This document shows, in pieces, positions 19,275 through 57,510 of a stretch of DNA of 64,000 nt (positions are counted from its first letter, which is position 1; each line of letters opens with the position of its first letter). The notes beneath the pieces were generated by a model. That model did no database searches. It saw only the letters and a list, made by a program, of their open reading frames with translations, and was not told the DNA's origin. The DNA is from a virus (Duplodnaviria > Heunggongvirae > Uroviricota > Caudoviricetes): IMG/VR virus record IMGVR_UViG_2693429668_000006; one strand, written 5' to 3'. The translations under genes and the position numbers were made by a program.

Positions 19275-19376
19275 GTATGCTGTCAGCGGTAATTGATAGT
19301 CTGTCAGCGGTTCACCGTATGCTGCCAACTGTTTTTGGTATTCTGTCAGCGGCAAATCAAGTATGCTGTCAGCGGT
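19275..19376. repeat. upstream iteron array: 5 copies of ~16-bp GTATGCTGTCAGCGGT (some degenerate)
   Basis: copies at 19275, 19295, 19317, 19338, 19361. Confidence 0.75.
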
Positions 19377-19396
19377 TGAATGACAAAGGTGTCCAC

Positions 19397-20491
19397 ATGT
19401 CCACAAAAAATAAAAAAGGTAAAAATAACAAAGAAGTAGAAGATAACATCGACAACTTTGAAGAAGGTTCCCTTGAATTGTACACAGGGGAACTTGTCCC
19501 TAATAGCAACAATACAGTCCAACCAATTGCGTTGATGCGACTGGGGTTGTTCGTCCCCACGCTTAAGGGAACAAAATACAGTAAACGTAACAAGCCAAAT
19601 GAGATCGATGCTTCAAAGGAGCTTGTCCAGCTCGAAGTAGCCCGTTCTGAAGGCTATTCCGATATCAAGATAACCGGTCCTCGCCTGGACATGGATCATG
19701 ATTTCAAAACGTGGGTGGGCGTTGTGCGTTCGCTGGCAGAATACGGCGAACCTAATGGTCGTGTCGAGTTAAGCATCACGAAATTTGCGAAGTTTTGTGG
19801 CTATCCATCGTCACAGATCCGCAAAACACTCCGCGACCGGCTTACAAACAGTCTTTTGAAGATCATGCGTACAACTCTGTCTTTCCAGAGAACGTATGAA
19901 GAAAAGAACGTCGACGGCTCTAACAAGATCTCGCTTCTGATGGTGCACCTCATCAATAGCGTGGACTACAACGAGCAGAAAGATACGGTGGTGTTCTATG
20001 CAGAACCGAAGCTGGCCGAACTATATCGCTTTGACCATAAGGTTCTTTTGCAGTTAAAGGTTATCAATAAGCTACCACGCAAAGAAACAGCACAGGCTCT
20101 GTACACCTTCATCGAAAGTCTTCCAACCAAGCCTGCGCCGGTATCGCTTGCTCGATTGCGTGCGCGACTCAATTTGAGTAGCAGGAATGTCAGCTCGCAG
20201 AATCAGACTATACGTAACGGCTTAAAAGCTCTCCAAGATTTGGGCTATCTCGAATACAGCGAGATTAAGCGTGGGCGGTCGATCTATATCCAGATTCACA
20301 GCCGCAATCCAAAACTCAAAGTCGCACCGCCAAAACCTGAAGACATCGAACCCAAAAAACCAGATGAGAAAGCCGGGGAAATTGATGCCAAACAGAACAT
20401 TATCAATAAGATAACCGAACTTTCGCAGAATTTGACGCCTGAAAATATCAAGATGATTGAGATCCTTTCCAATAGTCTCAAACTGCTTTGA
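19397..20491 (+). CDS. repA: iteron-associated replication initiator (RepA-like), 364 aa
   Basis: plus-strand gene bracketed by iterons; ATG at 19397 with RBS; longer track ORF starting inside iterons rejected. Confidence 0.6.
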   Translation: MSTKNKKGKNNKEVEDNIDNFEEGSLELYTGELVPNSNNTVQPIALMRLGLFVPTLKGTKYSKRNKPNEIDASKELVQLEVARSEGYSDIKITGPRLDMDHDFKTWVGVVRSLAEYGEPNGRVELSITKFAKFCGYPSSQIRKTLRDRLTNSLLKIMRTTLSFQRTYEEKNVDGSNKISLLMVHLINSVDYNEQKDTVVFYAEPKLAELYRFDHKVLLQLKVINKLPRKETAQALYTFIESLPTKPAPVSLARLRARLNLSSRNVSSQNQTIRNGLKALQDLGYLEYSEIKRGRSIYIQIHSRNPKLKVAPPKPEDIEPKKPDEKAGEIDAKQNIINKITELSQNLTPENIKMIEILSNSLKLL

Positions 20492-20608
20492 TATGCTGTC
20501 AGCGGTGAAATGTATGCTATCAGCGGCTATTTTTCTGAAAAGTATGCTGTGAACGGTTAAAGATATGCTACCAGCGGTATAGTGAGATAAACGTATGCTG
20601 TGAGCGGT
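20491..20608. repeat. downstream iteron cluster 1 (5 copies)
   Basis: copies at 20491, 20512, 20542, 20563, 20593 with alternating 21/30-bp spacing; first overlaps rep stop codon. Confidence 0.75.
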
Positions 20609-20768
20609 AAATCATCTATCACCACTCAATGCTCTTTTATACCTCCCCAGTGGTTACTAACCTCGAAGAGTGCATTCCATATAGGTTTGCGCTCACTAAC
20701 ATTCTATTCCCATTGCGCTGATTACTTGTAGTGAAAGGTATTTATTGCCTGCTGCTCCCTGATAGAAC

Positions 20769-21023
20769 GTATGCTGTCAGCGGTGTTTTATTGAGGAATT
20801 TTTGTTTGGATATGCTATCAGCGGTAATTAATGGCATATGTCAGACCTTCGTATGCTGCCAGCGGTAATTTTGTTCTGGTTATACCCATACCGGTACACA
20901 TTATTCATGCAATGTCTTAAGTATGCTGTCAGCGGTAAAAAATCGAGTAAAGTATGCTGTGAGCGGTGAGATAGACTCTCGATATGCTATCAGCGGCAGT
21001 TGATTGTGTATGCTGTCAGCGGT
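20769..21023. repeat. downstream iteron cluster 2 (7 copies)
   Basis: copies at 20769, 20810, 20851, 20921, 20952, 20982, 21008. Confidence 0.75.
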
Positions 21024-21070
21024 GACGACTATGAAATATGACTGCGGAACGTGCCGCAGTCAGTTTGCAT

Positions 21071-21283
21071 TTAGTGTATTTTCTTCAACAGACCCCAAAG
21101 TGTTCCGGCTTTTGTAGTCAGTTTTCCTGTTTCTGGATCGTACATACGCCATTCACGCCGCTGGTGGACGATATACCCATCTTCACGTTCCAGACGCTCA
21201 AGAATGCCAGGCTGCTTGAAACCCTTAGCACGCCAGTATCCGCTTGTTTTCTCGATTTCCAGACCTGCCAGTGTTAATGCCAT
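21071..21283 (-). CDS. hypothetical protein (70 aa)
   Basis: ORF track; ATGA-type overlap with upstream gene. Confidence 0.35.
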   Translation of the reverse strand: MALTLAGLEIEKTSGYWRAKGFKQPGILERLEREDGYIVHQRREWRMYDPETGKLTTKAGTLWGLLKKIH

Positions 21284-23807: not shown

Positions 23808-26147
23808 TTACTCTTCTACTGACTCGGTGGGGTTGTCTTTTGCTCTTCGGTCGTCGATTGCCTGCAAAGCCGCAATGATTTCAGCCAGTGGCTTCTCCCG
23901 ATACATCTCGACGATCTGCGATTTGGTGTATTTCTTGTCACCAATTTCAACTCGCCCGCTGGCGTTCTTTGGCAGGTATCCTTCTTCCAGCATGTACTCG
24001 ACGAGCGATTCGATAACGTCGAGGCCACGAGTAGGATCGAAGTAGAATTTCCAGGTGCATTTGCCATACGGTGGTGCAACTTTGTTTTTGATGCATTCTG
24101 CGCCTACGTCCTGGCCGATCTTCTCTTTACCATCCTTCATCACCGATGCACCAAGACGGATACGTACAGAAGCGTAGAACTTCGGTGAATCTCCACCTGG
24201 CGACGTAGTAGGGTCGCCAAACATTACACCGATTTTTGTGCGAACCTGATTCAAGAAGATGATGCAGGCGTTGTATTTGCGTGCCCACAAAGCCAGAGTA
24301 GGGAAGTTCGCACTCGTCGCACGAGCCAGTGCCGTATTGTCGTTCATGTTTAGCTGATCTTTGTCTTTGGCTGTGCCTTCAGCCATCTTTTCGAACTTCT
24401 CGGCTTTGGAGTTCGGAACCATAGACGCAAGAGAGTCAGCCACGATACAGATAGGTGCTGATTCGGGGATAAGCTCTTCATCACGAACCAATTTAAGTAT
24501 TGTGCCGATCAACTCTACAGAGTCTTCGAAGGTATCTGGCTGCTTGTATACCCACTGACCGTCATCCTCATCTGCGTTCAGGCCATTGGCTACAGCCAGG
24601 CCAACGTCAAAACTGTTTTCATGATCGAGGAATACCGCCAGACCATCTTGTTTTTGAGCGGAGATCATCGCTGCTGTTGCAAGGAATGTGTTGTGGCTGA
24701 TAATCCCGTTAGACCAGAAAGAGTGTGTTTCCGGCATCGCTACGTCGAACGTTGGTGCTTCACCTTCCTCAATAGCCACGACTTCGTCGTAGAACAAGTT
24801 AGAGCCAATTACCGCTGCCAGTTGTGCAAACAGATGCTCGTTAAAACGATTCTTTCTGCCAATGAAGGAGACATAGATTTCTCGCAGTTTGTCTATTCCG
24901 ACACGATCGCCGCGGCCAATAACGTGGTCTACCAGAGCGTAGTCTTCACGGGTGGTCTTGGTGAGCGACTCGTAGAGTGATTTCACTAAGCCGCTGATGT
25001 GCGGAACATAGCCTGAGTAAGTGCGGTCAAAACCAATGTCCCGTTTGGTTGCCACTGATAAACGTGCCGGAGATTCGAAACCAATCGTTGACAGAAAAAG
25101 GTCGTAATTAGAGCCACTGAATGACAGCCGGTAATATGTATTTTCATAACCCGCGACGTGTTTTTCAGAGATAGTTGACGTAATCCCCAGATTCAGGAGC
25201 ATGAGGCGAATTTGCTGTAGCAGCAGCCCACTCGCGCTCACAACCTCAATGCAGCGACCATCATTGACGTGGCATTCCAGCTCAAAGTAGCCGCGAAGGA
25301 ATGCAATTTGAGCCTCGCTATTGGCGCGACGCACACTCAACGGAACCTGCTTGCCAGCAGCTTTCTCATACTCCAGACCATATTCTTTAAAAAGCAGCGA
25401 ACGCACCTCTTTGCTAAACAGCACATGGTCTTCCGAGCCGTTATGTTTTCTCGTAACTGGCATCTTGTCTGATACCAGCGAAATGAGGCGGTAGTACTCA
25501 TCCTTGATGAAAGGATCTGTGTTAGAAAAATTCACTGAATTTTCAGAGGCCACGTATCCGTCAGCAATTAAATAGCCCATCAGTTTTGCGATATTGGCAT
25601 CCAGGTGCTGATCGCCGAATTGATGTGTGCCAACCATTGAAGGAATCGTGTCGCCTACACTGATTTTTTCAGCATGTCGCCAGACGACATTACCTAAGTC
25701 GTCAACCACACGGATTGGGTGACGGAACGTAGCCTCGATATAACCGCCTGATGCCAGCTTAATACGCTTGAATTTGCGACGGTTGTTCCATGTCAGGTGT
25801 GAGGTCTTCTCTATCACGCCATTTTCATTGATGAGTCCAACGTTATGCTCTACATCGCGAGTAGTGCATGTCGCTTTGTACCCTTCAATCTCAAACAACT
25901 CTTTCACTGTTACCATTCCACGCTCCGTCAGCAGCATGGTGTCTGCGGTAACACATTTCCCCGCGCTTGGTGGCCCGAATACTTCTACGATACGACCACA
26001 TGGGAAACCGCCATCGTAACGACCGGAAATAGCTTTGTTTAACGGAGGAAAGCCTGTGTCAATCCAATGAGTTACTTTCTGAATTTCGTCGTTGCTACCG
26101 ATTTTCTTTTTCAGAGCAAGTGCCAGTGCGGATTTTCCTTTTGCCAT
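23808..26147 (-). CDS. recA: RecA-like recombinase precursor interrupted by an intein
   Basis: exteins (64 + 293 aa) carry RecA motifs GRIVEVFGPPSAGK|TF, FLDHENSFD, IIFLNQVR; insertion inside Walker A. Confidence 0.8.
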   Translation of the reverse strand: MAKGKSALALALKKKIGSNDEIQKVTHWIDTGFPPLNKAISGRYDGGFPCGRIVEVFGPPSAGKCVTADTMLLTERGMVTVKELFEIEGYKATCTTRDVEHNVGLINENGVIEKTSHLTWNNRRKFKRIKLASGGYIEATFRHPIRVVDDLGNVVWRHAEKISVGDTIPSMVGTHQFGDQHLDANIAKLMGYLIADGYVASENSVNFSNTDPFIKDEYYRLISLVSDKMPVTRKHNGSEDHVLFSKEVRSLLFKEYGLEYEKAAGKQVPLSVRRANSEAQIAFLRGYFELECHVNDGRCIEVVSASGLLLQQIRLMLLNLGITSTISEKHVAGYENTYYRLSFSGSNYDLFLSTIGFESPARLSVATKRDIGFDRTYSGYVPHISGLVKSLYESLTKTTREDYALVDHVIGRGDRVGIDKLREIYVSFIGRKNRFNEHLFAQLAAVIGSNLFYDEVVAIEEGEAPTFDVAMPETHSFWSNGIISHNTFLATAAMISAQKQDGLAVFLDHENSFDVGLAVANGLNADEDDGQWVYKQPDTFEDSVELIGTILKLVRDEELIPESAPICIVADSLASMVPNSKAEKFEKMAEGTAKDKDQLNMNDNTALARATSANFPTLALWARKYNACIIFLNQVRTKIGVMFGDPTTSPGGDSPKFYASVRIRLGASVMKDGKEKIGQDVGAECIKNKVAPPYGKCTWKFYFDPTRGLDVIESLVEYMLEEGYLPKNASGRVEIGDKKYTKSQIVEMYREKPLAEIIAALQAIDDRRAKDNPTESVEE
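24690..25955 (-). mobile_element. intein (422 aa) with LAGLIDADG homing-endonuclease domain
   Basis: starts Cys (CVTADTML...), ends ...SHN followed by Thr; LAGLIDADG-type motifs LMGYLIADGYV and AFLRGYFELE. Confidence 0.8.
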
Positions 26148-26149
26148 GA

Positions 26150-26422
26150 TCAGGCTCCTTTTGTTTCGTTGATTCGTTTTAAAGCGGCGGATTCGTCTAA
26201 TACAATCGCATCGTGATTAAGGAGTCTGGATACACGAGCGAGGATTTTTACGACCTGCTCGCTGACTAATCCAAACTCGCGATCTGTCGCTTTCATTCCG
26301 GCAGCGCCTAGAATTGACGGCAGTGCGATGACAGCGTACTCACCGTGATAAAAGACAATCTCTTTTGCCAGTTGGGTGGGGGTGGTTGTAGCGCCATTAA
26401 TAATCGATTTAAGCATTAGCAA
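26150..26422 (-). CDS. hypothetical protein (90 aa)
   Basis: ORF track. Confidence 0.4.
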   Translation of the reverse strand: MLMLKSIINGATTTPTQLAKEIVFYHGEYAVIALPSILGAAGMKATDREFGLVSEQVVKILARVSRLLNHDAIVLDESAALKRINETKGA

Positions 26423-27411
26423 TACCTTTCGAATGGAAGAACAAACACTTCAAGGTCTTCAAGGAACGAACGGAAATTCAGCTCGTAGCACAGTTGCTCG
26501 AATGCTTTCACGTCACGATTGCCTTTGATTGTTTCGATTTCGGTAGGCGGAAACTTCGTCTCAATCAGGTTCATTAGCGTGATGTTTCTCTTGAACGCTT
26601 CGAGCATTCGACAGCCTGTTTTCTCGTTGAAGGCATTCTTCGCTAGTTTGTTGAAGGCGGTCTTATGACGCCCTTTATTAACCACGATTGAGCCGTCGTT
26701 GATGCCGCGTACCATCGTTGCGACACTTCCCCATTCATGCAGCAGCTCTTTCGCACCGCCAGCACCAATGCCTCCAACACCGCTAATGTTGTCCGAGTTA
26801 TCGCCTTGTAATGCTTTTGCTTCCAAAAATGCGCGAGGCGTGGCGAATCCTGTCAGCTCCGCAAATTGCTCAAAATTAACCTGCTTGTTTTTGGCGTCTT
26901 CACGCAGGCTTACCCAGCTTACGTTTTCACGAACTAACTGAAGCCAGTCGCTATCGCCTGTTAACAGATAGATGTGTTCAACGGTTGGCTGCGGTGCCAT
27001 GCGGGATACCAGCAGCCCGGCCAGATCATCCGCTTCTGCATCTTTTGCAATGAGTTGGGTAACTCCAAGCGCGGTCATCATTTTGAGGATGTATGGCTTC
27101 TGGATAGCAAAGCCTTCCTTCATCTTTTTCATATCAGGATCGTCGTCGCGATTTGCTTTGTAGTCCGGGTAAAAGTCGCGACGCTTGTCACTAAATCCAT
27201 CCCAAAGAATCATAGGTCGGGCATGGAGGATGGAGGCATAACGACGGACGTTCTTAACAAAGCCGAAAGCAGCCTGTACTTCCATTTCGCCGTTGTGCAA
27301 TTTGTCAGATTGTTGGTGGTAATAACCCAGGCTATTGCCATCTACGAAGAGATAATTCACCGGTACATTCCTTCCAAAAAGTAAGGCGTCCGTAGACGCC
27401 TTACTGGTCAC
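26416..27411 (-). CDS. 5-prime-3-prime exonuclease / flap endonuclease (FEN family)
   Basis: N-terminal YLFVDGNSLGY, acidic cluster DAEADDLAG, H3TH-like C-terminal region. Confidence 0.75.
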   Translation of the reverse strand: MTSKASTDALLFGRNVPVNYLFVDGNSLGYYHQQSDKLHNGEMEVQAAFGFVKNVRRYASILHARPMILWDGFSDKRRDFYPDYKANRDDDPDMKKMKEGFAIQKPYILKMMTALGVTQLIAKDAEADDLAGLLVSRMAPQPTVEHIYLLTGDSDWLQLVRENVSWVSLREDAKNKQVNFEQFAELTGFATPRAFLEAKALQGDNSDNISGVGGIGAGGAKELLHEWGSVATMVRGINDGSIVVNKGRHKTAFNKLAKNAFNEKTGCRMLEAFKRNITLMNLIETKFPPTEIETIKGNRDVKAFEQLCYELNFRSFLEDLEVFVLPFERYC

Positions 27412-27420: not shown

Positions 27421-28449
27421 TTACAGAGAGTCCAGCTCTCTCAGTAGGTCATCCAGACCTTCATCTTCCGTCGCAGATGCGGCTGCTACAGATGTCGCTG
27501 CGACTGCTTCAGACTCTTTGACTGATACTGCAACGGCAGCGGAACTTGCTTCTGGTTTAAATTCAGTTTCAACGGCACGGAGGATTTCTTCATCAACCAG
27601 ACTGGTTGGTTCAGAAGCCGGTGTGTGCGCGGTTGCTACAGCCGTCGCTCCTTCTGTATGACCAGTGACAGAGCCAAATCCAGGTAGTGCCGCAGCCGAT
27701 GTTTTCGCGGTTGAGGAAATTGCTGGTGCAGATGCTGCGGCAGTTGGTGCAGCGATGCCAATCAGACGACCCATAGTGCGAACTGTCGACAGAAGACGAG
27801 TTTCATCAGCCTGATTTGCGTATGCGATCAGATCATGCTGGGTGTTCCAGAATTTATCTTCGATATCGCCTTTGTAGACTTTACGCTTAGGCGAGACGTC
27901 ATATTTGGTATCGCGACCAGAGCCAGTACGTTTAATCAGGAATGCGTAGCCTTCCTCTTTGCTCAGTGGATTGCCGATATCATCAGCGATGTCTTCGGTG
28001 ATTGCTTTGCAGATATCATCGAATACAGTAGACGGCAGCTCGATTAACTGGCATTTCTCAGCATCTGCGAAATCCTCACGAGCAGAAAGAATGCCGTTGA
28101 CCAGGTAGCGAGGAGTGGCACGCATTTGACCGATGCGTTCTTCCATTGCTTTGTTACCCTTGTGACGAGCGCGACCTTCCATAACCATTTCGCATAGCTG
28201 ACAAGCGCGACCGTGAGTATGTTGCTCACAAATATAAGCGTTGGTTGCTTCTTTACCTTCCTCGTTCTGATACTTAACGTAGTGCATACCGAAAGTCTGG
28301 AAGAACTTACCGTTTGGGTCGTCTTTATTCGGGAAGATGCGGATATAGTTGACGCCGTCTTTTAAGCGAGTCAGATCAACGTTGTTGCCACGTTTGGCGG
28401 CAATGTCTTCACGAGTTTTGTTAAGCAAATCAAGTAATGTCTTAGACAT
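27421..28449 (-). CDS. single-stranded DNA-binding protein, T4 gp32-like
   Basis: VNYIRIFPNKDD... collinear with gp32 core; H/C zinc-ligand cluster (CEQHTHGRACQLC); acidic C-terminal tail (DEGLDDLLRELDSL). Confidence 0.6.
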   Translation of the reverse strand: MSKTLLDLLNKTREDIAAKRGNNVDLTRLKDGVNYIRIFPNKDDPNGKFFQTFGMHYVKYQNEEGKEATNAYICEQHTHGRACQLCEMVMEGRARHKGNKAMEERIGQMRATPRYLVNGILSAREDFADAEKCQLIELPSTVFDDICKAITEDIADDIGNPLSKEEGYAFLIKRTGSGRDTKYDVSPKRKVYKGDIEDKFWNTQHDLIAYANQADETRLLSTVRTMGRLIGIAAPTAAASAPAISSTAKTSAAALPGFGSVTGHTEGATAVATAHTPASEPTSLVDEEILRAVETEFKPEASSAAVAVSVKESEAVAATSVAAASATEDEGLDDLLRELDSL

Positions 28450-30102: not shown

Positions 30103-30431
30103 TGATGCCCGCCAATTGGCGGGCATCTGTTCTCTGTAAAGGTGTCTGGCATCGTCTGGTTCGTTAACGTTTACTAAACCAATGGTGACAAAAATTAGTT
30201 ATCTTTGAAAAATAAAGGTTGCATGAAAAGAAGGGGTATGCGTTAATAGCATCGTTGGTTTGCAAGACAGACCTTATGTAAGCAGTTTTAGTAAAGCAGT
30301 CTCAGTTCAGTGTTATCTTCTGATTTCCCTTCTTCGTGAGTCTCCTCCTTAAGTGCCTAAGTAAGTCCCAATCTATACAGATCAAATTCTCGCCGCACTA
30401 TGTGGCTCACAAAATTAAGAAGGTAATATCT

Positions 30432-30647
30432 ATGTCTAATAAAATGACTGGTTTAGTAAAATGGTTTAACTCTGATAAAGGCTTTGGCTTTATTTCTCCT
30501 GCTGATGGCAGTAAAGATGTTTTTGTACATTTTTCGGCAATTCAGAGTAATAATTTCCGCACTTTGGAAGAAGGCCAGCAGGTCGAATTCTCTATCGAGA
30601 ATGGGGCTAAAGGCCCAGCAGCAGCAAATGTCGTTGCTCTAAGCTGA
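30432..30647 (+). CDS. cold-shock protein (CspA family, 71 aa)
   Basis: RNP1/RNP2 motifs KGFGFI and VFVHF; GLVKWFN start; ~190-nt leader upstream. Confidence 0.85.
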
Positions 30648-43707: not shown

Positions 43708-43712
43708 TAAAT

Positions 43713-45387: not shown

Positions 45388-46710
45388 TCATTCTTTATCT
45401 CCGATTCGATCTTCTGTATCGCGTAAGCAACGCGGCCATTTCAGTCGTGGGTGGCGTAAGCTGCCGTCCGGTGTTTTCTCGTGACAATGAACCTCAACAA
45501 TACGACCACGGTACTTCTCTTTGTTGTTCCAGATCTCGTCCAGATATTTATGCTTAATGCCGCTCGCACGAACAATCACACCGTTTTCAAGGCGAATAAC
45601 AATTTTTCCAAGCGTGTTGGCAAAACCAGAGTCCGGGTCGCCCGACTCAAAGTCGATAATTTCACCATCTTCTGAATCTTCGTCTTTTAACTTCCACCAG
45701 CTGCGGGTACGTTTAAACTCGTAAACAGAGTTCGGATCTTTGCCCATCTCCCCTTCTTCGTTATCGTCAAGGCGTTTCATGAAGCGTTCGATGAAGTCTT
45801 CGTGGCTATGGATGATATAGAACGGATGCAGGTGAATGTCTTGTGTGTAGCCTTCACTGCGATCGTTTTTGAACAACGCCACGAGAATAGCCAGGCGCTC
45901 TTTCAGCTTCATACCTGTCTTTGCATACTCTTTGGATTTAGCCTGTGCCCGCCATTCCGGTAGGAAGAAGTCGAAAACATGATAAATAGCGCCAATTGCC
46001 TGCACGTTCTTTTTGCGCAATGCAGATACGGACTGGTTAAATGAACCGGCTGTTCCTTCACCATCGAAGAAGATGTGTTTGTGGCCTGAAAGTTTGCCTA
46101 ATTCGAGCATTGCTGGCTTTAGGTGATCGAGAGACGTGATTGGATTACCAGTACGAGAAAGGAAGTTAACCTCTTCCTCGTCAACAATAACCTCGCAAAT
46201 TACTCGCAAACCATCGAGCTTAAGACTGCCAATCATCGGCCATTTTGCTTTAGGGTTTGGCTTGAAGGGGTATTTGTCGCCTTTTTCTTTATACGGTGAC
46301 GCCAGCTGCACCTCGAATTTCGGAATGGGATTTTCAAAAACCTTGTTGCATAGGCTAATCCCAACACCCGCTTTCGGGTCTTTTAAGAGGAAACGACGGA
46401 ACACGTCCTGCCCATCGGCGCACATTGACGCCACGATAGACTCAACAGCAGCTATTGCTGCGTTCCCCGTCAGCTCGCGAGAGGCCAGCTTATTCAGTAC
46501 ATCAATGGCTTTTTCGTCACTTGGGACGGACTCACTAAGCGGCTCTGCCACTTTGTATTTCTTTACCCCAAAACGGATGAAAGGGTTGAGCATCAATGAA
46601 ACCATGCTTTGTTCAAAGTCATCCATGTTGGCCAATGCCTCTTTTTTTGCATTGGTTCCCATAGCTTTCATTTCGTCCAGCTTATGCTTAAGTGCGATCA
46701 ACTTTTTCAT
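45388..46710 (-). CDS. ATP-dependent DNA ligase
   Basis: adenylation motif I KLDGLR; 440 aa. Confidence 0.8.
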   Translation of the reverse strand: MKKLIALKHKLDEMKAMGTNAKKEALANMDDFEQSMVSLMLNPFIRFGVKKYKVAEPLSESVPSDEKAIDVLNKLASRELTGNAAIAAVESIVASMCADGQDVFRRFLLKDPKAGVGISLCNKVFENPIPKFEVQLASPYKEKGDKYPFKPNPKAKWPMIGSLKLDGLRVICEVIVDEEEVNFLSRTGNPITSLDHLKPAMLELGKLSGHKHIFFDGEGTAGSFNQSVSALRKKNVQAIGAIYHVFDFFLPEWRAQAKSKEYAKTGMKLKERLAILVALFKNDRSEGYTQDIHLHPFYIIHSHEDFIERFMKRLDDNEEGEMGKDPNSVYEFKRTRSWWKLKDEDSEDGEIIDFESGDPDSGFANTLGKIVIRLENGVIVRASGIKHKYLDEIWNNKEKYRGRIVEVHCHEKTPDGSLRHPRLKWPRCLRDTEDRIGDKE

Positions 46711-48152: not shown

Positions 48153-48566
48153 TTAATGAGCTACAGCCTCACTGTTGCACATCTTTCTGTAGACCTGCTT
48201 ATAACGCTGTAAATCATGAGGATCATTAGGTGCCAACGACTTCGATAGGATTTTGTATACCACCCCTTTTGAAAACATGCCCTTTGGCTTCATTTCGAGT
48301 TCAACAACATATGAGTGATAGCCCACGTATGCACCAAAGCCATTTTTGGCGTTTAATTCACCACACACAAAGCCTGTCACACTCCCATCATCATGATCAG
48401 TCCTGACAAACTTATCTTTCCTAAACATCACCGACGTGGGATCTTTCATATCATCCGCAATTGCCTGTTGGCCCAGAGTAATAGCCTTCTCGTCTGTAGG
48501 CTTACACCCAACTAATGCAAACAACGACAATAAAGCACCTGTTAAAATCAACTTCTTTTTGCGCAT
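48153..48566 (-). CDS. lipoprotein (137 aa)
   Basis: signal peptide with lipobox LVGC. Confidence 0.5.
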   Translation of the reverse strand: MRKKKLILTGALLSLFALVGCKPTDEKAITLGQQAIADDMKDPTSVMFRKDKFVRTDHDDGSVTGFVCGELNAKNGFGAYVGYHSYVVELEMKPKGMFSKGVVYKILSKSLAPNDPHDLQRYKQVYRKMCNSEAVAH

Positions 48567-48793: not shown

Positions 48794-50047
48794 ATGAAAC
48801 TCATAAAACCTTCATCGTTGCTGGCATTAGCTTTGCTTTTCGGCCCTGGATACGTTAACGCAGATAATAAACAAACGCTGATCGACGCCGCCACCGCAGG
48901 AGATACCACAGCACAAAGTGCGTTAGGGACAAATTATTTGGATGGGGCTAATGGCTTTGATGAGGATTTAGTAGAGGCCAAGAAGTGGATCGATCTCGCC
49001 GCAGAAAAGGGAGATAAAGTAGCATATTATGCGCTTGGGGTTATGTACACAATTGGGAAGGGAGTAGATAAAGATCTAAATAAGGCCGTTGAGTACTACA
49101 AACTAGCAGGAAATGCTCGCAACGGCAGTGCTTACCATAATCTTGCCGTTATATACGAACGAGGTTGGACTGGAAAGGAGGACCCAGAAGCTGCTTTAAA
49201 ATATCACAAACTAGCAGTAGAAGCTGGTGATATACCTTCGCTTGCCTATATGGGATATTTATATCAATACGGTAAGGGAGTTCCGAAAGATTACAAGAAA
49301 GCATTTAAATCTTATAAAAAGGCTGCGGATAGTGGAAATGCCGCAGGAATGTATGGGCTAGGCTCTATGTACGACGATGGTGTTGCTGTTAAGCGCAACA
49401 ATAAAGAGGCAATTAAGTGGTACTTGAAAGCAGCTGAATTAGGAAATAATAACGCCATGAGCGCGCTTGGATACAAGTTGATGCATGGAGAAGGTATAAA
49501 AAAAGACTATTCGAAGGCCAGAAGTCTTTTAGAACAAGCAATCAGCTTAGGAAATGATTATGCCATGAACCACCTTGGTTACATGTATCTTAAGGGATTG
49601 GGCGTCAAACAGGATTATCGGAAAGCATCAGAGCTTTACCAAGCTGCTTGCGATAAAGATGACGAAACGGGCTGCGAAAACGTTGCTGCAATGAAAGCAA
49701 AAGGTACGTTCCGTTCGCCTTCAAAACAGCAAAATGCCAAATCTGACACTCAGCGACTTATTGCTAAATCCATTGATAAAGGCGTTAACGCAACATTTAC
49801 CTGGCAGGGTGATGATGCCGTCTTCACCGCTAATGATGGCAAAGTTGACTGCACCTTCTTGAAGGATTTTTCAGAGAAAGGAGGCAATCTGGCTACCTCG
49901 TTTGTTTGCACCGATAACGTTCAAATCATCCTGAAGCAATTCAGAGATACCAAGAATGCCTACCTCGCGGTAATGACTGACAACTTCAACACAGAAGTTA
50001 AATCATTTTCGGTCAATGTTTACGTGACTAATACTGGTTCAAACTAA
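48794..50047 (+). CDS. secreted Sel1-repeat (TPR-like) protein
   Basis: signal peptide; tandem ~36-aa Sel1-like repeats (A..LG.MY..G.GV.KD...A..WY.KAA). Confidence 0.65.
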   Translation: MKLIKPSSLLALALLFGPGYVNADNKQTLIDAATAGDTTAQSALGTNYLDGANGFDEDLVEAKKWIDLAAEKGDKVAYYALGVMYTIGKGVDKDLNKAVEYYKLAGNARNGSAYHNLAVIYERGWTGKEDPEAALKYHKLAVEAGDIPSLAYMGYLYQYGKGVPKDYKKAFKSYKKAADSGNAAGMYGLGSMYDDGVAVKRNNKEAIKWYLKAAELGNNNAMSALGYKLMHGEGIKKDYSKARSLLEQAISLGNDYAMNHLGYMYLKGLGVKQDYRKASELYQAACDKDDETGCENVAAMKAKGTFRSPSKQQNAKSDTQRLIAKSIDKGVNATFTWQGDDAVFTANDGKVDCTFLKDFSEKGGNLATSFVCTDNVQIILKQFRDTKNAYLAVMTDNFNTEVKSFSVNVYVTNTGSN

Positions 50048-51220
50048 TGCTGCTATACCTTTTACCTTGCTTAAAAGTTCAAGCTGTCGTGAGTAAGGTT
50101 TTGCGCAATAGTAGGCTTTGATAATCTGCCCCGGTGTCGCATCGCCGGGGTCGAGTCCTTCCTCGCCCAAACACGCAACTTTGACATTAAGACCAATACT
50201 GGTCAGTCGCCTGGCTGCGGCCATCGTGTTTCGTATAGCTTGCTTTTCACTATCCCACATCATGATCACATTACGTAATCCACGCGCCTTGAGCGTCAGG
50301 AACGCGCCCAACTGATCTTCTGCATCCTGAGTGGTGTTGCCAGATAGATGCATCCCGAACGTTCCTATTGGCTCCACGTAATCACGTAATGTTTCTTCGT
50401 CGAAAATAGCTCGTTTGACCCCCATAACATCGAACGCACCCTCACAGACAACTACAGTCTGTTTGCCGACTGCATTATGGCCGTTGTAGAGAAATTTACC
50501 TGAAGCTGGAAGCTGCATAGGAAAGAGGTAGCGGCGTTCTGCTGTACCGGTAATGTCTCGTCCCTGAAATGTCTTCATTACCCCATCCAGATCGTAAACC
50601 GGTATCAGTATTCGCATATCGAATATCTGCCCTTTTACCTGATCTGTATACGGATCTACATAAGCGTGCTTGCCTTCGACGCAGTATCGTAGGTCAAAAT
50701 ACTTTGCCATTTCAGGTGATATGTTTCGTTCAACCAGATAGTCTGGAAGACGGCCATCTATAGGAAGCTCGTAATGACGAGGGAGTGCAACTGGCCCCTC
50801 TAACTCGACTGTGCTTGCAAGCACTAGCTCTTCTTTCTTTGGTGTCCACCCCTGGGAAAGAAGAGCGTTCTGCACATATTCCTCGAACTGTCGTCGTGAT
50901 TTACCGCTGTAGTGCTTGAGGAAGACCAGCTTATTGAACTGAATCTCTTCGGGATGATCACCAGCGAAGCATTTGCCGACGCCACTGGTCAGATTGAAAT
51001 ATACCTTCCAGTTGGAGCTGCCGCATACCGGACACTCTTTGATATTCACTTCACGACCGCGAGCACTCACGCCTCCACGTCGATAAACGATACCTTCAGT
51101 ATCCAACCATTGTTCAAAATCTAATTCGGCAATTAGCTCTTTCAGCTCGCTCACGATAATTCCACTTTTAACAGGCAATATTGTGACCAACCTAAATGTT
51201 GATATAACATAAAGGCTCAT
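50039..51220 (-). CDS. DnaG-like DNA primase (zinc finger + TOPRIM)
   Basis: zinc-binding CPVCGSSNW...GKCFAGDH; TOPRIM VVVCEGAFDVMG / MWDSEK; ATG at 51220 with conserved initiation context. Confidence 0.7.
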   Translation of the reverse strand: MSLYVISTFRLVTILPVKSGIIVSELKELIAELDFEQWLDTEGIVYRRGGVSARGREVNIKECPVCGSSNWKVYFNLTSGVGKCFAGDHPEEIQFNKLVFLKHYSGKSRRQFEEYVQNALLSQGWTPKKEELVLASTVELEGPVALPRHYELPIDGRLPDYLVERNISPEMAKYFDLRYCVEGKHAYVDPYTDQVKGQIFDMRILIPVYDLDGVMKTFQGRDITGTAERRYLFPMQLPASGKFLYNGHNAVGKQTVVVCEGAFDVMGVKRAIFDEETLRDYVEPIGTFGMHLSGNTTQDAEDQLGAFLTLKARGLRNVIMMWDSEKQAIRNTMAAARRLTSIGLNVKVACLGEEGLDPGDATPGQIIKAYYCAKPYSRQLELLSKVKGIAALV

Positions 51221-51301: not shown

Positions 51302-52642
51302 TTAGGTAACGTCTAAGATTCGCTCAATGAAGCGCATTTGTTCGAGGTTTTGTTTAACGCGAATGCTGATCCCTCCCTGCTGGTTACGTGAACCGGCAAA
51401 GTAGAGACGAGCCTCTCCTTTCGCTTCTTCTTCTTCGGTTTTGTTGATCGTTATTACCAGGTCAGCAATACGTACTTTTTCGATGTTGTCGGCAGCGTGC
51501 ATCATTGTGGCAACTTCTGACGCGCCACCTTCACGGTTTGTCTGCGATGCCGTGATCCCAGCAACGTTATGCTTGTCATAAAGAGCACGTAAATCGGTGT
51601 AGATACTACGAATGTTGGCGCGATCATCACGAAGGTCATAACTGGCACGCATCAAATCTGCGTAGTCGACAACAACCATGTCAGGCACCATGCCGTTGGC
51701 TTTCATGCTGTTAAGCATACGGTCCAGATCTGCCGGTGACATACTTCCTGACGGACGCTCAACAACCCACAAACTACCAATCCCCTTAGAGGCTCCCAAC
51801 TCTGCCAACTTACGATGAACTTCATCGCGCCGTTCCACCAACTTGGACATTTCCGTCTCCGACAATCTTGCATCAAAACGGTCGGACAAAATGTTGGTGT
51901 GAACCTCCAGCGAGAGATACAGAACATTGTAGCCAGCAAGCGTTGCGTTTATGGAAAACTCGCCCATTGCGGTCGATTTACCGGATTTAGCGAACCCCAT
52001 GAAGAGCACCATTTCGCGCTTTGCCCAGCCTTTTTGGTACAGCAACCTATCGAGAAGAGGGAGTCCAGTTGTAATACTGTTTGGTACATACTCCTCTGAA
52101 GCCTCATATTCACGCGCTTTCAATCGCTCACTTGCGGAGGTGTAGTAGTCATAGATTCCGGTCGCTTCGTTCGATCCAATCTGCTGAACCTTGGCCATGA
52201 TTGCCATCGCCCCCTGAAAGTCGCCCTTCTCTTTCAGTTCAGCAGCCTTAATCAGAGCATCATCAAACGCTACGCTTTTTGCGAAGGTTGATACCTGGTC
52301 AACCATGTACGAGGTATCGGACAATTTTTCTGCAAGGATGCGCTTAAACGCAACAACAACATCGGCGAATAGTTCCTCACGGATAGTCTTATCGCGTTTC
52401 GCACGCTTAAGCATATCCAGAATTGCAGATGAAGAGGGCGCGCTCTTGTACATACGGTAATAGCCCGAAACCATATTAACCAATATGGCATTGGCCGCAT
52501 TGGCAAATTGGCTAGGCACAACCAGATCTCCCGCACGAGTAAGAAACTCGTGATCACGACAAAAATATGCCGTCAGTCTGTTCTGGAAATCTTCATCAAA
52601 CTCTTCGGACAGCCCGCGTCCTGTATGGCAAAGTTCGGTCAT
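51302..52642 (-). CDS. DnaB-family replicative helicase
   Basis: Walker A GFAKSGKST, RecA-like C-terminal domain, 446 aa. Confidence 0.75.
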   Translation of the reverse strand: MTELCHTGRGLSEEFDEDFQNRLTAYFCRDHEFLTRAGDLVVPSQFANAANAILVNMVSGYYRMYKSAPSSSAILDMLKRAKRDKTIREELFADVVVAFKRILAEKLSDTSYMVDQVSTFAKSVAFDDALIKAAELKEKGDFQGAMAIMAKVQQIGSNEATGIYDYYTSASERLKAREYEASEEYVPNSITTGLPLLDRLLYQKGWAKREMVLFMGFAKSGKSTAMGEFSINATLAGYNVLYLSLEVHTNILSDRFDARLSETEMSKLVERRDEVHRKLAELGASKGIGSLWVVERPSGSMSPADLDRMLNSMKANGMVPDMVVVDYADLMRASYDLRDDRANIRSIYTDLRALYDKHNVAGITASQTNREGGASEVATMMHAADNIEKVRIADLVITINKTEEEEAKGEARLYFAGSRNQQGGISIRVKQNLEQMRFIERILDVT

Positions 52643-53607: not shown

Positions 53608-55314
53608 TTAATGATTGAGTATTTTATTAACACGCAGCTTATTAAGTGTTGATTTTGAAGCAACTTCCTCCAAAGCTTCTATTGCTTTATCAGTGATGCT
53701 CTTCTGTTCGTCTGTCGGGTGTTGCATACCCTTGAACTTGAGCATAGTCTCTTCTACTAAATTCAAAGCATCCTGATCACAGGATAATATCCAGTTTACG
53801 TAATCATCTTTAGAAAAACTGTTAAGAATATTCACATCACTATGGTTAAATCTTCCACCAGCTATTTTTTTTATAATTTTATCTAAGTTATAGTCATCTG
53901 GATTTCTATCTTTCAATTTTTTTTCAATTCTGAAACCTAATTCTTCATTTCCGAAGATCTCTACTCGCAAAGAATTAAATGTAGCATACGCATTGTCTTT
54001 ATTAACAAAAGCATCTGCATATGCCTCTATAATATTATTACAATCTCTATCCAATTTGATTAGGACATTTATTAAACCTACGAACTGTCCAATTGGTATA
54101 CGCAACAGACTATCGTTAATTACGCGCTCAATTTGAAAAATAAACTCTGATTCATTATCTTTAAAAGAGTTTCTAAAAACATCCCAAATTTTATAAACCT
54201 CACATAAAACCCTATTATCTCTATATTGTTCATTTTTTTCTTTTATTATATTTAGAATATTGCTTTCAGAAGACACATAACCGTTCTTAAGGTAAAAATC
54301 TATATCATCATCGAAAGCACTTTCTGCTCGTTCATAAATAATATCAAGGCTATTAACAAATGAATATACAGAGTTAACTTCTTCCTTTTCATCTTTATCA
54401 TCTAACATATAGTCGAATGCATGTATATTTTTGATTGACTCCTTAAATGAAGCATAATCAACGCTAGGAACACCAAAATAGTAAACCACTGAAAATAAGA
54501 CCAATCTATTAATAAAACTTTCTCTAACCTTATCCTCTGCTAACTTTAGCACATCTCTAAATATAACTAGAGATGATTTTATTTTATTTAATATTCTAAT
54601 GTTTTTGATGTTTAAATCATTTGCTAGGTTTTTTAACAAAAGAAAATCAGGGTCAGTCTCATAAAAAACTTTTCTTAAGTTTTTCTCAGGCGTGGGATCG
54701 TATTTTATTTCCACATCAATTATTTTTTCTCTATACTCTAAAAACTGTTGTTGTGCAGTTTCTTCATGTAAGTTATCTTCATTTAATATTAGAACAACCT
54801 TGCAATTTTTTCTTCTTGCCAACTCATCAATTACCCCCATAATCTCTTTAATTTCTAGCGCACTACCTTTTCGTTCAATATCATCAATGCAAACCAAATA
54901 ATTATTAACAAATTTATACTCAAGAGATGACAGCAGATTATCAGTTTTGAACCCAAAAAAATCGTTCTTTCCAAAATGTATTAAAAATTTTGACAAGGAG
55001 TTGTATTTCAACCATCCCCAAAACCCATTTCTATAACGAATCATAGTTCGATCCGTTTCAGATAAAATCAGTTCTTTATATTTCTTTTCATTAATTGGTG
55101 TGGCACAATGATAAAGAGCTTTTTTAATGTCTCCAATAGAATTTATTCCAAACAAAGAAACATATGAATATGCATTAAAATCTAATTTTTTAGAATGTTT
55201 AGTATAAAAGCTATTCCAATAATGCGTTTTACCTACTCCCCAATTTCCTTTTATGACAGCAACCCGATGATCTGAGTCCAAAAAATTTTTTAAAAATACT
55301 TCTATCGATTCCAT
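53608..55314 (-). CDS. KAP-family-like P-loop NTPase (568 aa), AT-rich accessory gene
   Basis: Walker A GNWGVGKT (GxWGxGK[ST]), Walker B LVCIDDIERK (hhhhDD[LI][DE]R); strongly AT-rich. Confidence 0.55.
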   Translation of the reverse strand: MESIEVFLKNFLDSDHRVAVIKGNWGVGKTHYWNSFYTKHSKKLDFNAYSYVSLFGINSIGDIKKALYHCATPINEKKYKELILSETDRTMIRYRNGFWGWLKYNSLSKFLIHFGKNDFFGFKTDNLLSSLEYKFVNNYLVCIDDIERKGSALEIKEIMGVIDELARRKNCKVVLILNEDNLHEETAQQQFLEYREKIIDVEIKYDPTPEKNLRKVFYETDPDFLLLKNLANDLNIKNIRILNKIKSSLVIFRDVLKLAEDKVRESFINRLVLFSVVYYFGVPSVDYASFKESIKNIHAFDYMLDDKDEKEEVNSVYSFVNSLDIIYERAESAFDDDIDFYLKNGYVSSESNILNIIKEKNEQYRDNRVLCEVYKIWDVFRNSFKDNESEFIFQIERVINDSLLRIPIGQFVGLINVLIKLDRDCNNIIEAYADAFVNKDNAYATFNSLRVEIFGNEELGFRIEKKLKDRNPDDYNLDKIIKKIAGGRFNHSDVNILNSFSKDDYVNWILSCDQDALNLVEETMLKFKGMQHPTDEQKSITDKAIEALEEVASKSTLNKLRVNKILNH

Positions 55315-55365
55315 TGGTGTCTATCCTTCAACTCATATATTGGGCGTAACAAACGCCCAATATAA

Positions 55366-55725
55366 TCACCCTTTCTTCATCAACTCGCGTTTAATTTCAT
55401 CGGTACGCATCGTGACATCGGCAGCTGTGATCGCCTCGTTAAGTTTCACGATGTCCTCGATTTCCTGCGGTGTCTTCTCCGCAAGATGGAAAATAGCAGC
55501 ACGAATCACGTCAGAACGAGTGAACTTCTCGAAGCGAGGGATGAACTTCATCATCTCCAGCAGTTCGAAGTATTCGTCCTCCAGTGACATTGTGCGGCTT
55601 TTAATTTTCTCTTTGCCACGAGTCGGGCGTCCCTGTGGTCTGACTGGTTGGCGCAAAGGAGTTGTGTTCTTAGCCGGTGCATCAGGCTCTTTGCGCTTTG
55701 CTAGGTCACCCATTTTCATGGACAT
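55366..55725 (-). CDS. small partition partner protein (ParG/ParB-like candidate, 119 aa)
   Basis: translationally coupled downstream of parA; basic N-terminus. Confidence 0.4.
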   Translation of the reverse strand: MSMKMGDLAKRKEPDAPAKNTTPLRQPVRPQGRPTRGKEKIKSRTMSLEDEYFELLEMMKFIPRFEKFTRSDVIRAAIFHLAEKTPQEIEDIVKLNEAITAADVTMRTDEIKRELMKKG

Positions 55726-56393
55726 TATTCTTCTTCCTCCAGACTCAACAGATAATCTACAAATTCTTCAAACTCGGCTTCCGCCTTTTTGTCGCGCTCG
55801 CTACCGGTCATTTCAAAGATAGAACGACCAGACTCTTCCGCATCATCATAGACGTTGCGGTTATATAGATTGACTGGCGCAGACTCGATGCCAAACGTCT
55901 CAACAATCTCTTTAGCCGCCAGAATGCGAGACACTTGTGATGGCAAAGCCGGGCACTGGTTCATGACCGCGCGGACCTTCACTTTATCGTTTACATTACG
56001 AACATTGTCGATAATAGGATCGATGTCACGCAGAGATTTCAAATCACGACGCTTAGGACGAAGCGGGATAATGATAACGTCGGCCATCAGCATCGCTTGT
56101 CGCTGAATTTCGGAGTCAAAGCCACCAGCATCTACCACTACAAACTCAGCTCTACCCTGAAGCGATTTTAGGTGCTTAATGATGTCATCCTGAACGTATG
56201 CAAAAGGAATCAGCTCAAGGTCTTCGTTCTGTCGACGGTCTTCACACCAGCTTGTTGTCGTGCGCTGAATATCTATATCAGTGATATAAACCTTCTTCTT
56301 CTTTTTGACTTTCAGGCAAACGGCAATTTGCTGGGCAACGGTGGATTTGCCAGGCCCGCCCTTTGTGCCGCCAACCACAAAGATCTTGGTCAT
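55725..56393 (-). CDS. parA: ParA-family partition ATPase
   Basis: deviant Walker A VVGGTKGGPGKST; 222 aa small-ParA size. Confidence 0.8.
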   Translation of the reverse strand: MTKIFVVGGTKGGPGKSTVAQQIAVCLKVKKKKKVYITDIDIQRTTTSWCEDRRQNEDLELIPFAYVQDDIIKHLKSLQGRAEFVVVDAGGFDSEIQRQAMLMADVIIIPLRPKRRDLKSLRDIDPIIDNVRNVNDKVKVRAVMNQCPALPSQVSRILAAKEIVETFGIESAPVNLYNRNVYDDAEESGRSIFEMTGSERDKKAEAEFEEFVDYLLSLEEEE

Positions 56394-56425
56394 TGGAGAG
56401 TTCCCTTTGCGTCTATTATTATCGT

Positions 56426-56450
56426 CTGAAACAACTTGTTTTCTTATATG
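56426..56450 (-). promoter_or_regulatory. class-B palindromic motif CTGAAACAACTTGTTTTCTTATATG
   Basis: upstream of parA. Confidence 0.4.
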
Positions 56451-56711
56451 TGATATAGCCTAAATGCCTACGGCTACGGTGTAAAGGTTAAATGGTAGGT
56501 TGTGGTTAACAATTGGCAATCATAGCTTGTATTTGTCTGTTGAAAAAAGTAACAATGACCTCTATATTACAAGTACGGTGATATGCCGTACACAATTTGA
56601 TAATGCACACGTAATGGGCTATAGCCTTTTAAAGTAATTTTTGAGTCGAAAACTCAGTTTGAACAGAGGAGATTGATGGCCTTCCTACATCACGGCCATC
56701 AGGAGGAATAC

Positions 56712-56981
56712 ATGTCAGCACTAAAAAAGCAGCGCATCGATTTGAGATTAACCGATGACGATAAAAGCATCATCGAGGAAGCTGCCGCAATGTCTAACCA
56801 GAGCATTACTCAGTTTATGGTTAGCAGTGCATCTGAACGTGCCGTGAAAGTTATAGAGCAACACCGTAGACTAGTTCTGAATGAAGAATCCTGGAATCTG
56901 GTTATGGACGCTATAAGCAATCCTCCGGCACCGAACGACAAGCTGAAACGAGCTGCTGATCGTCTGAAAAGCATGGAGTAG
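56712..56981 (+). CDS. tacA: TacA-like antitoxin (DUF1778, RHH)
   Basis: ATG at 56712 after AGGAGG RBS; typical TacA N-terminus MSALKKQRIDLRLTDDDKSIIEEAAA. Confidence 0.7.
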   Translation: MSALKKQRIDLRLTDDDKSIIEEAAAMSNQSITQFMVSSASERAVKVIEQHRRLVLNEESWNLVMDAISNPPAPNDKLKRAADRLKSME

Positions 56982-56988
56982 TTTACTC

Positions 56989-57510
56989 GTGAGCAATACA
57001 ACGATAGAGATTTTCTCTGGAGAGAAAGATTATGATCTAAACGGTTTTGATTGCGGCGAAGAGTCACTAAACGCCTTTTTAGCCAACCACTTAAAAAGGC
57101 AGCATGAGGGAAAAATTCTTCGTGCTTATGTGCTTTGCACTCAAGAAGAAAGGCCAAAAGTGTTAGGATATTACACTTTGTCAGGTAGTTGTTTTGAAAA
57201 GGAGTCCTTACCTTCAAGAAGCAAACAAAAGAAGGTTCCTTATCGGAATGTTCCAAGTGTTACTTTGGGTAGGCTGGCTTTGGACAAGTCCCTTCAAGGT
57301 CAAGGATTTGGCTCAATGCTTGTAACACATGCAATGCGCGTTGTGTACAATGCATCTCTTGCTGTAGGCATTCATGGACTTTTCGTTGAGGCGTTAAATG
57401 ACAAAGCCAAGGCGTTTTATAAAAGTTTAGGCTTTATCCAGCTGGTTGGTAACAACGAGCGTTCTTTGTTCTATCCTACAAAATCTATCGAAAAATTGTT
57501 CGAAGAATAA
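56989..57510 (+). CDS. tacT: GNAT acetyltransferase toxin (TacT-like)
   Basis: GTG start 8 nt after tacA stop; GNAT acetyl-CoA motif (RLALDKSLQGQGFGSMLV). Confidence 0.7.
   Translation: MSNTTIEIFSGEKDYDLNGFDCGEESLNAFLANHLKRQHEGKILRAYVLCTQEERPKVLGYYTLSGSCFEKESLPSRSKQKKVPYRNVPSVTLGRLALDKSLQGQGFGSMLVTHAMRVVYNASLAVGIHGLFVEALNDKAKAFYKSLGFIQLVGNNERSLFYPTKSIEKLFEE

Follow-up and report, generated by a model that had tools for sequence, protein, structure and literature searches.

The 64,000-nt stretch of DNA analyzed here (the window) is very probably 64 kb of a circular phage-plasmid of about 110 kb from Escherichia coli, a member of the SSU5 supergroup, in which a temperate siphovirus keeps its prophage as a low-copy plasmid. 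Phage-plasmids of this kind are already known and common in E. coli, and they have been catalogued, typed, and partly characterized experimentally. A first-pass annotation, which concerned positions 19275-57510 only, had proposed a plasmid-prophage lifestyle. This proposal holds up: the element is 98% identical to the proven phage-plasmid Cyrano, and its core genes lie on plasmids at all 263 places where they were found. A single element fills the entire window and extends beyond both the annotated interval and the window itself, with a G+C content of about 46% and most of the long open reading frames (ORFs) on the minus strand. The only part that might be new is a tyrosine recombinase and the palindrome that lies beside its gene.

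The window and p19KM1803_1, a circular 112,650-bp plasmid of an E. coli isolate from a Swiss cat, are 10 single-nucleotide polymorphisms (SNPs) and the first 69 bases apart. Position 1 of that record corresponds to window position 19397, and the window thus crosses the origin of the circular record. Two kinds of genes by which phage-plasmids are recognized (Pfeifer et al. 2021) were found on this replicon. Plasmid replication and partition genes are represented by a Rep3_N initiator with 16 iterons and by ParA with its partner, and the virion and lysis genes comprise a lysis cassette, tail fiber, and tail tip in the window, with terminase, portal, major capsid, tape measure, and tail proteins encoded in the remainder of p19KM1803_1.

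A nucleotide search of phage records gave Cyrano (pLF82 of E. coli LF82; OV696614) as the best match, with 97.9% identity over 80% of the query (window 19275-44000), followed by SSU5 at 79.8% over 50%, while P1 matched over about 300 bp only. We then compared 67 window genes, taken from the PGAP coordinates of the near-identical plasmid, counting as homologs those with at least 35% identity and at least 50% coverage. Salmonella phage SSU5 (JQ965645 / NC_018843), the type member of the supergroup, has homologs of 52 of the 67 genes in conserved order, at 42-96% amino acid identity, whereas P1 has homologs of 4. The SSU5 homologs include Rep, ParA, and the ParA partner, so these plasmid genes belong to a genome that was sequenced from virions. 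Of the two affinities suggested earlier, P1-like or SSU5/pHCM2-like, the second is therefore borne out, and resemblance to P1 is confined to the replicon.

The extrachromosomal state of the element is consistent across genomes. A core query consisting of DnaE, CobS, and CobT was found in 245 of 5,426 complete E. coli genomes. Its 263 places all lie on plasmids, which range from about 96 to 161 kb with the majority at about 105-116 kb, and no place is chromosomal. A broader query, of 19 kb, had 847 places on plasmids and 14 on chromosomes. Since this query contains grxA, tRNAs, and an AtaRT-like pair, the 14 chromosomal places are probably matches to relatives of these genes. PLSDB types the plasmid relatives as non-mobilizable, with replicon rep_cluster_488. 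The first-pass annotation had reasoned that its lifestyle proposal would fail for a chromosomally integrated element with att sites and with rep and par pseudogenes; instead, the core was never chromosomal, and rep, parA, and the parA partner are each full length relative to their SSU5 homologs.

Other records of the family show how the element varies. Window positions 1-69 have no match in p19KM1803_1 or most relatives, in which matches begin at base 70, and they do match at least one other plasmid of the same family, NZ_CP122519.1. The window thus comes from a close relative of p19KM1803_1 and not from that plasmid itself. Outside the window, p19KM1803_1 also bears chromosomal-type metG and apbC genes and a type I restriction-modification system. 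Plasmid pTIC (MF554642.1, "uncultured bacterium") is about 100% identical to the window except for three rearrangements, which leave p19KM1803_1 as the closer of the two. It lacks rep (window 19310-20489), with the ends of the deletion lying in iterons; it has a 1.3-kb insertion sequence (IS) between the recombinase gene and the palindrome (window 40169-40176); and in place of window 56818-57508, which holds the end of tacA and the GNAT toxin gene, it has a segment of equal length, 690 bp, with aac(6')-Ib-cr.

Three other readings of the element were weighed. It is rather unlikely that this copy is a defective derivative locked in the plasmid state, which forms no infectious virions and behaves only as a non-mobilizable plasmid. 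In p19KM1803_1 the J host-specificity (tail-tip) gene is split by an IS3-family element at 3236-4951, just past window position 64000, and is annotated as a pseudogene fragment. Because of this interruption in a plasmid only 10 SNPs from the window, the lineage may no longer form infectious particles, which counts against an active phage. Insertion sequences are also frequent in relatives, and defective phage-plasmids do exist, according to the tyPPing paper (PMC12977533). Against this, the broken J gene lies outside the window, which is not strictly the same record as p19KM1803_1, and all phage genes within the window are intact ORFs of full length relative to SSU5. Release of virions, shown only for the 98%-identical Cyrano (PMC9928086), likewise speaks against a defective copy.

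That the element is instead a P1-like phage-plasmid (Punavirus) is highly improbable. Its Rep is 44% identical to P1 RepA within the same origin architecture, TerB/TciA-like and Cra-like genes are common to both, and over 300 bp close to the tRNAs the identity with P1 is 82%. Gene content nevertheless rules this identity out, with P1 homologs for only 4 of 67 genes, no Cre, no Phd/Doc, no P1-type ParAB, and virion genes that are of siphovirus type and homologous to those of SSU5. The least probable reading of all, a prophage integrated in the chromosome or inserted into an unrelated plasmid, could draw on the encoded tyrosine recombinase, for which an integrase domain is the top match in NCBIfam, and on the 14 short chromosomal matches of the mixed 19-kb query, and is ruled out by the absence of chromosomal places in complete E. 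coli genomes for both the core (0 of 263) and the recombinase site (0 of 504), in a window without any chromosomal genes whose rep and par stand at the same places as in SSU5 virion DNA.

Replicon, partition, and toxin-antitoxin genes

The rep gene (19397-20491, plus strand, in an ORF open from 19277) encodes a 364-aa initiator of the Rep3/RepB family with a Pfam Rep3_N (WH1) match at E=5e-9, and PGAP annotates its counterpart in p19KM1803_1 as "RepB family plasmid replication initiator." Translation probably starts with the ATG at 19397, a position that many plasmid records take as their first base. The protein shares 49% identity with its SSU5 counterpart and 44% with RepA of P1. The iteron core TATGCTGTCAGCGG occurs 16 times in the window at 2 or fewer mismatches, all on the plus strand, compared with 0.46 copies expected from shuffling. 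Four to five copies, spaced by about 21 bp, form an array upstream of rep (19276-19375), and 12 form a downstream array (20492-21022) analogous to the annotated incA copy-control array of P1.

Upstream of the 19276-19375 array, at 19160-19245 on the plus strand, the sequence reads as a DnaA-box-like ATATCCACA with six GATC sites within about 75 bp, together with tandem GATAGATCC repeats. P1 oriR has the same layout of DnaA box, Dam sites (GATC), incC iterons, repA, and incA iterons. With its winged-helix-domain initiator, direct-repeat iterons on both sides, DnaA box, and Dam sites, the region is an iteron replicon, as the first-pass annotation had recognized, and belongs to the iteron-controlled Rep3/P1-RepA type. 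Binding of the iterons by Rep, and copy-number control by handcuffing, are predicted by analogy with homologous systems.

The ParA and small partner reported at 55366-56393 were both found there, on the minus strand, using Pfam, NCBIfam, PHROGs, and PDB searches. ParA (55725-56393) is a 222-aa protein with ParA/MipZ/CbiA family matches, and among solved structures ParF of TP228 matches it best (E=1e-10). It matches the NCBIfam model ParA_partition at E=2e-33 and 116 bits, which is under the model's cut-off of 180 bits. The gene directly downstream (55366-55719) encodes the partner, a protein of 117-119 aa without a Pfam match that belongs to a conserved phage family, phrog_5111. ParA is 91% and the partner 92% identical to the SSU5 pair. 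With a small Walker-type ParA lacking an N-terminal helix-turn-helix (HTH), followed by a small partner gene, the operon has the gene arrangement of type Ib (ParF/ParG-like) partition systems.

Just beyond the partition operon is a predicted toxin-antitoxin (TA) pair on the plus strand (56712-57510), in which a TacA1-family antitoxin gene (56712-56981; Pfam E=9e-26) lies directly upstream of a GNAT toxin gene (56989-57510) with a gap of 7 bp. By sequence, the pair falls in the GNAT/ribbon-helix-helix (RHH) class of type II toxin-antitoxins. The toxin is 70% identical to AtaT in the PDB (6GTS, E=1e-79) and close to KacT (E=4e-75), while the match to Salmonella TacT (5FVJ) is at E=2e-11. The module had been called TacA/TacT. 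Since the toxin is more distant from Salmonella TacT, "AtaRT/KacAT-like" is a more precise label for the pair.

The tyrosine recombinase and the adjacent palindrome

The tyrosine recombinase assigned to 39033-40136 (minus strand) has a Pfam Phage_integrase domain (E=3e-10) and is absent from SSU5 and P1. A sequence search against solved structures found no relative of it. Read by eye, the protein contains the motifs ARRPDE, RDLRRT, NHS, and VYDRHDY, with the first His of HxxR replaced by Arg. A perfect palindrome, AATGATTCCATAC-N7-GTATGGAATCATT, lies at 40235-40267, 98 bases upstream of the recombinase start codon, with ATAGTAG as its spacer. It is unique in the window and is the sole full copy in p19KM1803_1. 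Sequence and the corresponding loci of relatives make it a candidate core site for the recombinase.

The palindrome accompanies the recombinase well beyond E. coli. In the Klebsiella phage pJN2-26, where the recombinase is 83% identical, the arms are unchanged save for the outermost base of each, while the spacer differs and the flanks have diverged. When a single genome of each species was scanned for exact arms, the site appeared at two loci of Kluyvera, three of Chimaeribacter, and one of Buttiauxella, and also in a Yersinia pestis contig of 108 kb, always 43-99 bp upstream of a recombinase homolog with 57-86% identity. With E. coli and Klebsiella the range is thus six genera, over which the recombinase is 57-100% identical, the Y. 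pestis contig being of pMT1 size. The site was also borne by 101 IMG/VR stretches, and we analyzed 89 site-bearing loci in all (80 from IMG/VR, the seven genome loci, pJN2-26, and the window). The same arrangement of palindrome and recombinase was present in all 86 loci that contained the gene. The spacer has 11 variants among them and occurs in both orientations relative to the gene, while the arms are essentially invariant. Starting from the protein, the exact site was recovered in 68 of 69 evaluable homolog loci; the sole exception, at 56% identity, differs in both arms, and the change is mirror-symmetric.

Among complete E. coli genomes, 252 have the site, once per plasmid, and all 504 site places are on plasmids. 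In four loci, elements that are 96-99% identical to the window on the recombinase side lose all similarity to it at the outer edge of the palindrome, three of them at 40267-40269 and the other at 40279. At one of these loci the neighboring DNA is a fimbrial usher/chaperone operon with IS2.

A geometry of 13-7-13 with a variable spacer is typical of tyrosine recombinase core sites such as loxP and FRT. Sites of this type have two inverted arms around a spacer in the 6-8-bp class and are linked to the recombinase gene, and the palindrome matches this description. It fits a core site of the lox/FRT type because of its 13-7-13 geometry, its invariant arms and free spacer, its linkage to the gene, its single copy, and the exact breakpoints. 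From these sequence comparisons we tentatively propose, with a little less than even confidence, that the recombinase of SSU5-supergroup phage-plasmids works with a previously undescribed lox-like site, which would serve both as the single multimer-resolution site and as a repeated entry point for cargo.

Solitary copies of the arm could, on the same proposal, be part of the same recombinase-binding system. Apart from the palindrome, the 13-bp arm has three exact copies in the window, each expected about 0.002 times by chance. One lies antisense inside dnaE (34204-34216, plus strand), one about 190 bp past tRNA-Asn (43980-43992, minus strand), and one overlaps the start of a 50-aa ORF (MIPYISLAF...; 45005-45017, minus strand). 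All are oriented toward the full site, and dozens of relatives have the arm at the same three positions, as a rule with ATC directly after it. The copies appear to be under constraint at the DNA level, since synonymous sites around the 13-mer in dnaE vary and the 13-mer does not. No second, degenerate arm is conserved beside them. SSU5, which has neither the recombinase nor the palindrome, nonetheless keeps two solitary copies.

This conservation makes it a serious rival, though in our estimate a somewhat less likely one, that the palindrome is an operator to which the neighboring HTH repressor or some other regulator binds, the solitary 13-mers then being monovalent operators. The HTH protein (38652-39038, plus strand; weak Pfam HTH_19) is a homolog of the Cyrano "putative repressor" CYRAN_45 and is absent from SSU5. 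The palindrome is upstream of the gene that adjoins this putative repressor, the solitary arms keep their positions even in the recombinase-less SSU5, and P1 offers a precedent in its dispersed asymmetric C1 operators, some of which are paired (mono- and bivalent). Several observations favor a recombinase site over an operator. Divergence is much faster in the HTH protein than in the recombinase (56% versus 83% identity in pJN2-26), and the HTH protein is undetectable in the Chimaeribacter loci, where the arms are still identical. The geometry with its variable spacer is that typical of a recombinase core site, and in several independent cases the homology of near-identical plasmids goes no further than the palindrome's outer edge.

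The literature says that phage-plasmids "typically lack integrases," and a literature search that did not cover Gilcrease & Casjens 2018 found no described recombination site for SSU5-like elements. The pair does not belong to Cre/loxP as far as P1 itself is concerned, in which tblastn gave no match to the recombinase and no match to the site was found. If the proposal is correct, a working lox-like system would explain both multimer resolution and the clustering of cargo at one place, and the recombinase with its palindrome would be a new orthogonal recombinase/site pair.

Replication, lysis, and accessory genes

Phage replication genes had been predicted in the annotated interval, and Pfam identifies them, all on the minus strand. 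They include a DnaE-type DNA polymerase III alpha subunit (30951-34469; domains PHP, DNA_pol3_alpha, finger, and HHH_6; 93% identical to SSU5), which had also been named correctly, a T4 gp32-like single-strand DNA-binding protein (SSB; 27421-28449; Pfam gp32 E=2e-67), a FEN-like 5'-3' exonuclease (26416-27360; 5_3_exonuc_N, 5_3_exonuc), an ATP-dependent DNA ligase (45388-46710; DNA_ligase_A_M), and a primase (50039-51154) followed by a DnaB-like helicase (51302-52642), these last two being 91-93% identical to SSU5. The helicase matches DnaB_C above the cut-off, and the primase has weak matches to Toprim_2 and DNAG_N below it. Between dnaE and the recombinase lies a pair of genes for a CobS-like AAA ATPase and a CobT-like VWA protein (34650-38089; AAA_5, CobT, CobT_C).

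RecA (23808-26147, minus strand; Pfam RecA, LAGLIDADG_3, Intein_splicing) carries a 422-aa LAGLIDADG intein (residues 65-486) within its Walker A motif. Alignment with the intein-less RecA of SSU5 places the junctions at GK|C...HN|T, splitting GPPSAGK|T, with the canonical Cys1 and His-Asn/Thr+1. RecA of pJN2-26 likewise lacks the intein. The intein looks polymorphic in the plasmid family, since the annotation in relatives is in some cases "RecA" and in others "LAGLIDADG homing endonuclease."

The earlier description of the recombination proteins as "T4-like" applies strongly to the gp32-family SSB only. RecA matches the bacterial RecA models (PF00154, TIGR02012) and not UvsX. The ORFs labeled UvsY and HicA/HicB in Cyrano have no Pfam match (for the UvsY ORF, at E<=0.01), and the SbcC/Mre11-like pair is generic. 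This last pair is part of a block on the minus strand at 338-19075 (Pfam, PGAP), which also encodes a TerB-like protein, RNase H, a Dam methylase, a DnaQ-like exonuclease, dihydrofolate reductase (DHFR), ThyA, and NrdAB, and which is collinear with SSU5 at 47-91% identity. The phage-type DHFR gene (6886-7362, minus strand) is named dfrA51 by PGAP and is here a core nucleotide-metabolism gene, not an acquired cassette. The dfrA51 gene was named recently, and its expression raises the minimum inhibitory concentration of trimethoprim (PMC12217456).

The predicted lysis and tail fiber genes exist, and they lie just outside the interval to which they had been assigned. A lysis cassette of putative holin, endolysin, and Rz-like spanin occupies 57679-58961 (minus strand; PHROGs), with 76-96% identity to the SSU5 counterparts. 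It is followed on the same strand by the tail fiber gene (59165-62914; Gp34_trimer) and by a gene for a J-like tail-tip protein, whose C-terminal part is in the window (63284-64000, continuing past it; Phage_Tail_Tip).

Genes absent from SSU5 are the variable accessory cargo of the element. They are CspG, the recombinase/repressor block, grxA, a 442-aa ORF, a 184-aa ORF, a 137-aa ORF (48153-48566), a Sel1-repeat protein, a KAP NTPase, and the TA pair; of these, grxA and the genes of 442 and 184 aa adjoin the recombinase site. The KAP-family P-loop NTPase (53608-55314, minus strand; Pfam KAP_NTPase) is a candidate defense gene with a PADLOC match to PDC-S49 at E=2e-21, and it lies in an accessory island of low G+C content (0.35). 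In PADLOC, eight other accessory ORFs and the GNAT toxin matched no family, the sole exception being a marginal PtuA match of the Sel1-repeat protein. From their sequences, a role for accessory genes such as the KAP NTPase as competition modules is plausible.

The ORF of 431-442 aa at 40765-42060 (plus strand) is also low in G+C content (about 0.35) and belongs to phrog_18168, a family of unknown function; it gave no Pfam, NCBIfam, or PADLOC match. The CspG-like cold-shock gene (30254-30672, plus strand) stands between the recombination genes and dnaE, and its leader is a full-length cspA thermoregulator (Rfam RF01766, 186 bits). A cluster of tRNA-Ser, -Thr, -Tyr, and -Asn genes lies at 43160-43787 on the minus strand by ARAGORN, and Rfam finds 3 of the 4.

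Mode of life and comparison with known systems

Taken together with homologous systems, the genes suggest how the element may live. The Rep3/P1-RepA-like initiator would fire the origin composed of the DnaA box, the GATC cluster, and the 4-5 upstream iterons, and the 12 iterons downstream of rep would titrate or handcuff Rep, limiting copy number in the manner of P1 incA. The ParF-like ParA and its small partner would segregate plasmid copies, multimers may be resolved at the one 13-7-13 palindrome by the tyrosine recombinase encoded next to it, and plasmid-free segregants would be killed when the labile antitoxin decays and the GNAT toxin acetylates charged tRNA. The HTH protein beside the recombinase is presumed to be the lysogeny repressor that keeps the lytic genes off. 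DNA damage would be expected to induce the prophage, as it does in Cyrano, and to bring into action its own replisome of DnaE, DnaQ-like exonuclease, DnaB-like helicase, primase, gp32-like SSB, ligase, FEN, and RNase H. Nucleotides would then be supplied by NrdAB, ThyA, and DHFR, recombination would be carried out by RecA, gp32, and the SbcCD-like nuclease, and holin, endolysin, and spanin would lyse the host cell.

Some results weigh against this scheme. Scanned for a sigma-70 consensus promoter, neither the iterons nor the DNA ahead of the recombinase gene gave a hit by the tool's criteria, and we therefore make no claim of autoregulation from the sequence. Near parA (55250-56760), a search for centromere repeats turned up nothing beyond short matches in two copies and, at 55336-55364, a 12-bp hairpin. 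The closest NCBIfam match of the recombinase is a P4-type integrase domain, the resolvase role suggested here is tentative, and every step of the mechanism is argued from homologous systems.

Among known phage-plasmids, Cyrano provides the nearest experimental counterpart. As plasmid pLF82 it has a copy number of 5.5 in each cell. Virions are released, ciprofloxacin induces the element 39-fold, siphovirus particles of the expected size were observed, and lysogens express its KacT-type toxin (PMC9928086). It shares with the window the order of RepA, intein-bearing RecA, gp32-like SSB, DnaE, CobS/T, HTH "repressor," integrase, and KacT-type TA genes. The two differ in the rep region, where the alignment starts only at window position 21071, and in the cargo at the recombinase site, which in Cyrano is a 555-bp ORF and three tRNAs and in the window the 442-aa and 184-aa ORFs and four tRNAs. 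SSU5 shares the replisome, nucleotide metabolism, and lysis genes, ParA with its partner, and Rep (at the 49% identity given above), and lacks the recombinase, HTH repressor, palindrome, TA pair, KAP NTPase, Sel1 protein, CspG, and RecA intein.

SSU5-like "phage-like plasmids" have been described repeatedly, as pHCM2, pECOH89, and AnCo1-3. Pfeifer et al. assigned SSU5_pHCM2, pKpn, pSLy3, pMT1, and pCAV to an SSU5 supercommunity (PMC7969092), within which tyPPing places pSLy3 as mainly an E. coli type (PMC12977533). Like the element in the window, plasmids of the pECOH89, pHCM2, and pSLy3 types are SSU5-homologous, non-conjugative, and about 105-115 kb in size (PMC3999498, PMC7969092, PMC12977533). 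pECOH89 carries CTX-M-15, whereas the window has no acquired resistance cassette. Such elements matter because SSU5-like phage-plasmids carry resistance genes (CTX-M-15, dfrA51), toxins, and defense genes. Among complete E. coli genomes, about 4-5% have one.

The TA pair has its nearest named relatives in AtaT-AtaR of E. coli O157 and KacT-KacA of Klebsiella, and its toxin is more distant from that of TacT-TacA of Salmonella. P1, with oriR/RepA/incA, ParAB-parS, Phd-Doc, and Cre-loxP, combines the same four functional categories on one prophage plasmid, with a homologous replicon of the same layout. Partition is by its gene arrangement of the ParF type (type Ib) in the window and of the ParAB type (type Ia) in P1, and the TA pair is GNAT/RHH in place of Phd/Doc. 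No similarity to Cre is detectable in the recombinase, and its candidate site of 13-7-13 is unrelated in sequence to the 13-8-13 site of P1.

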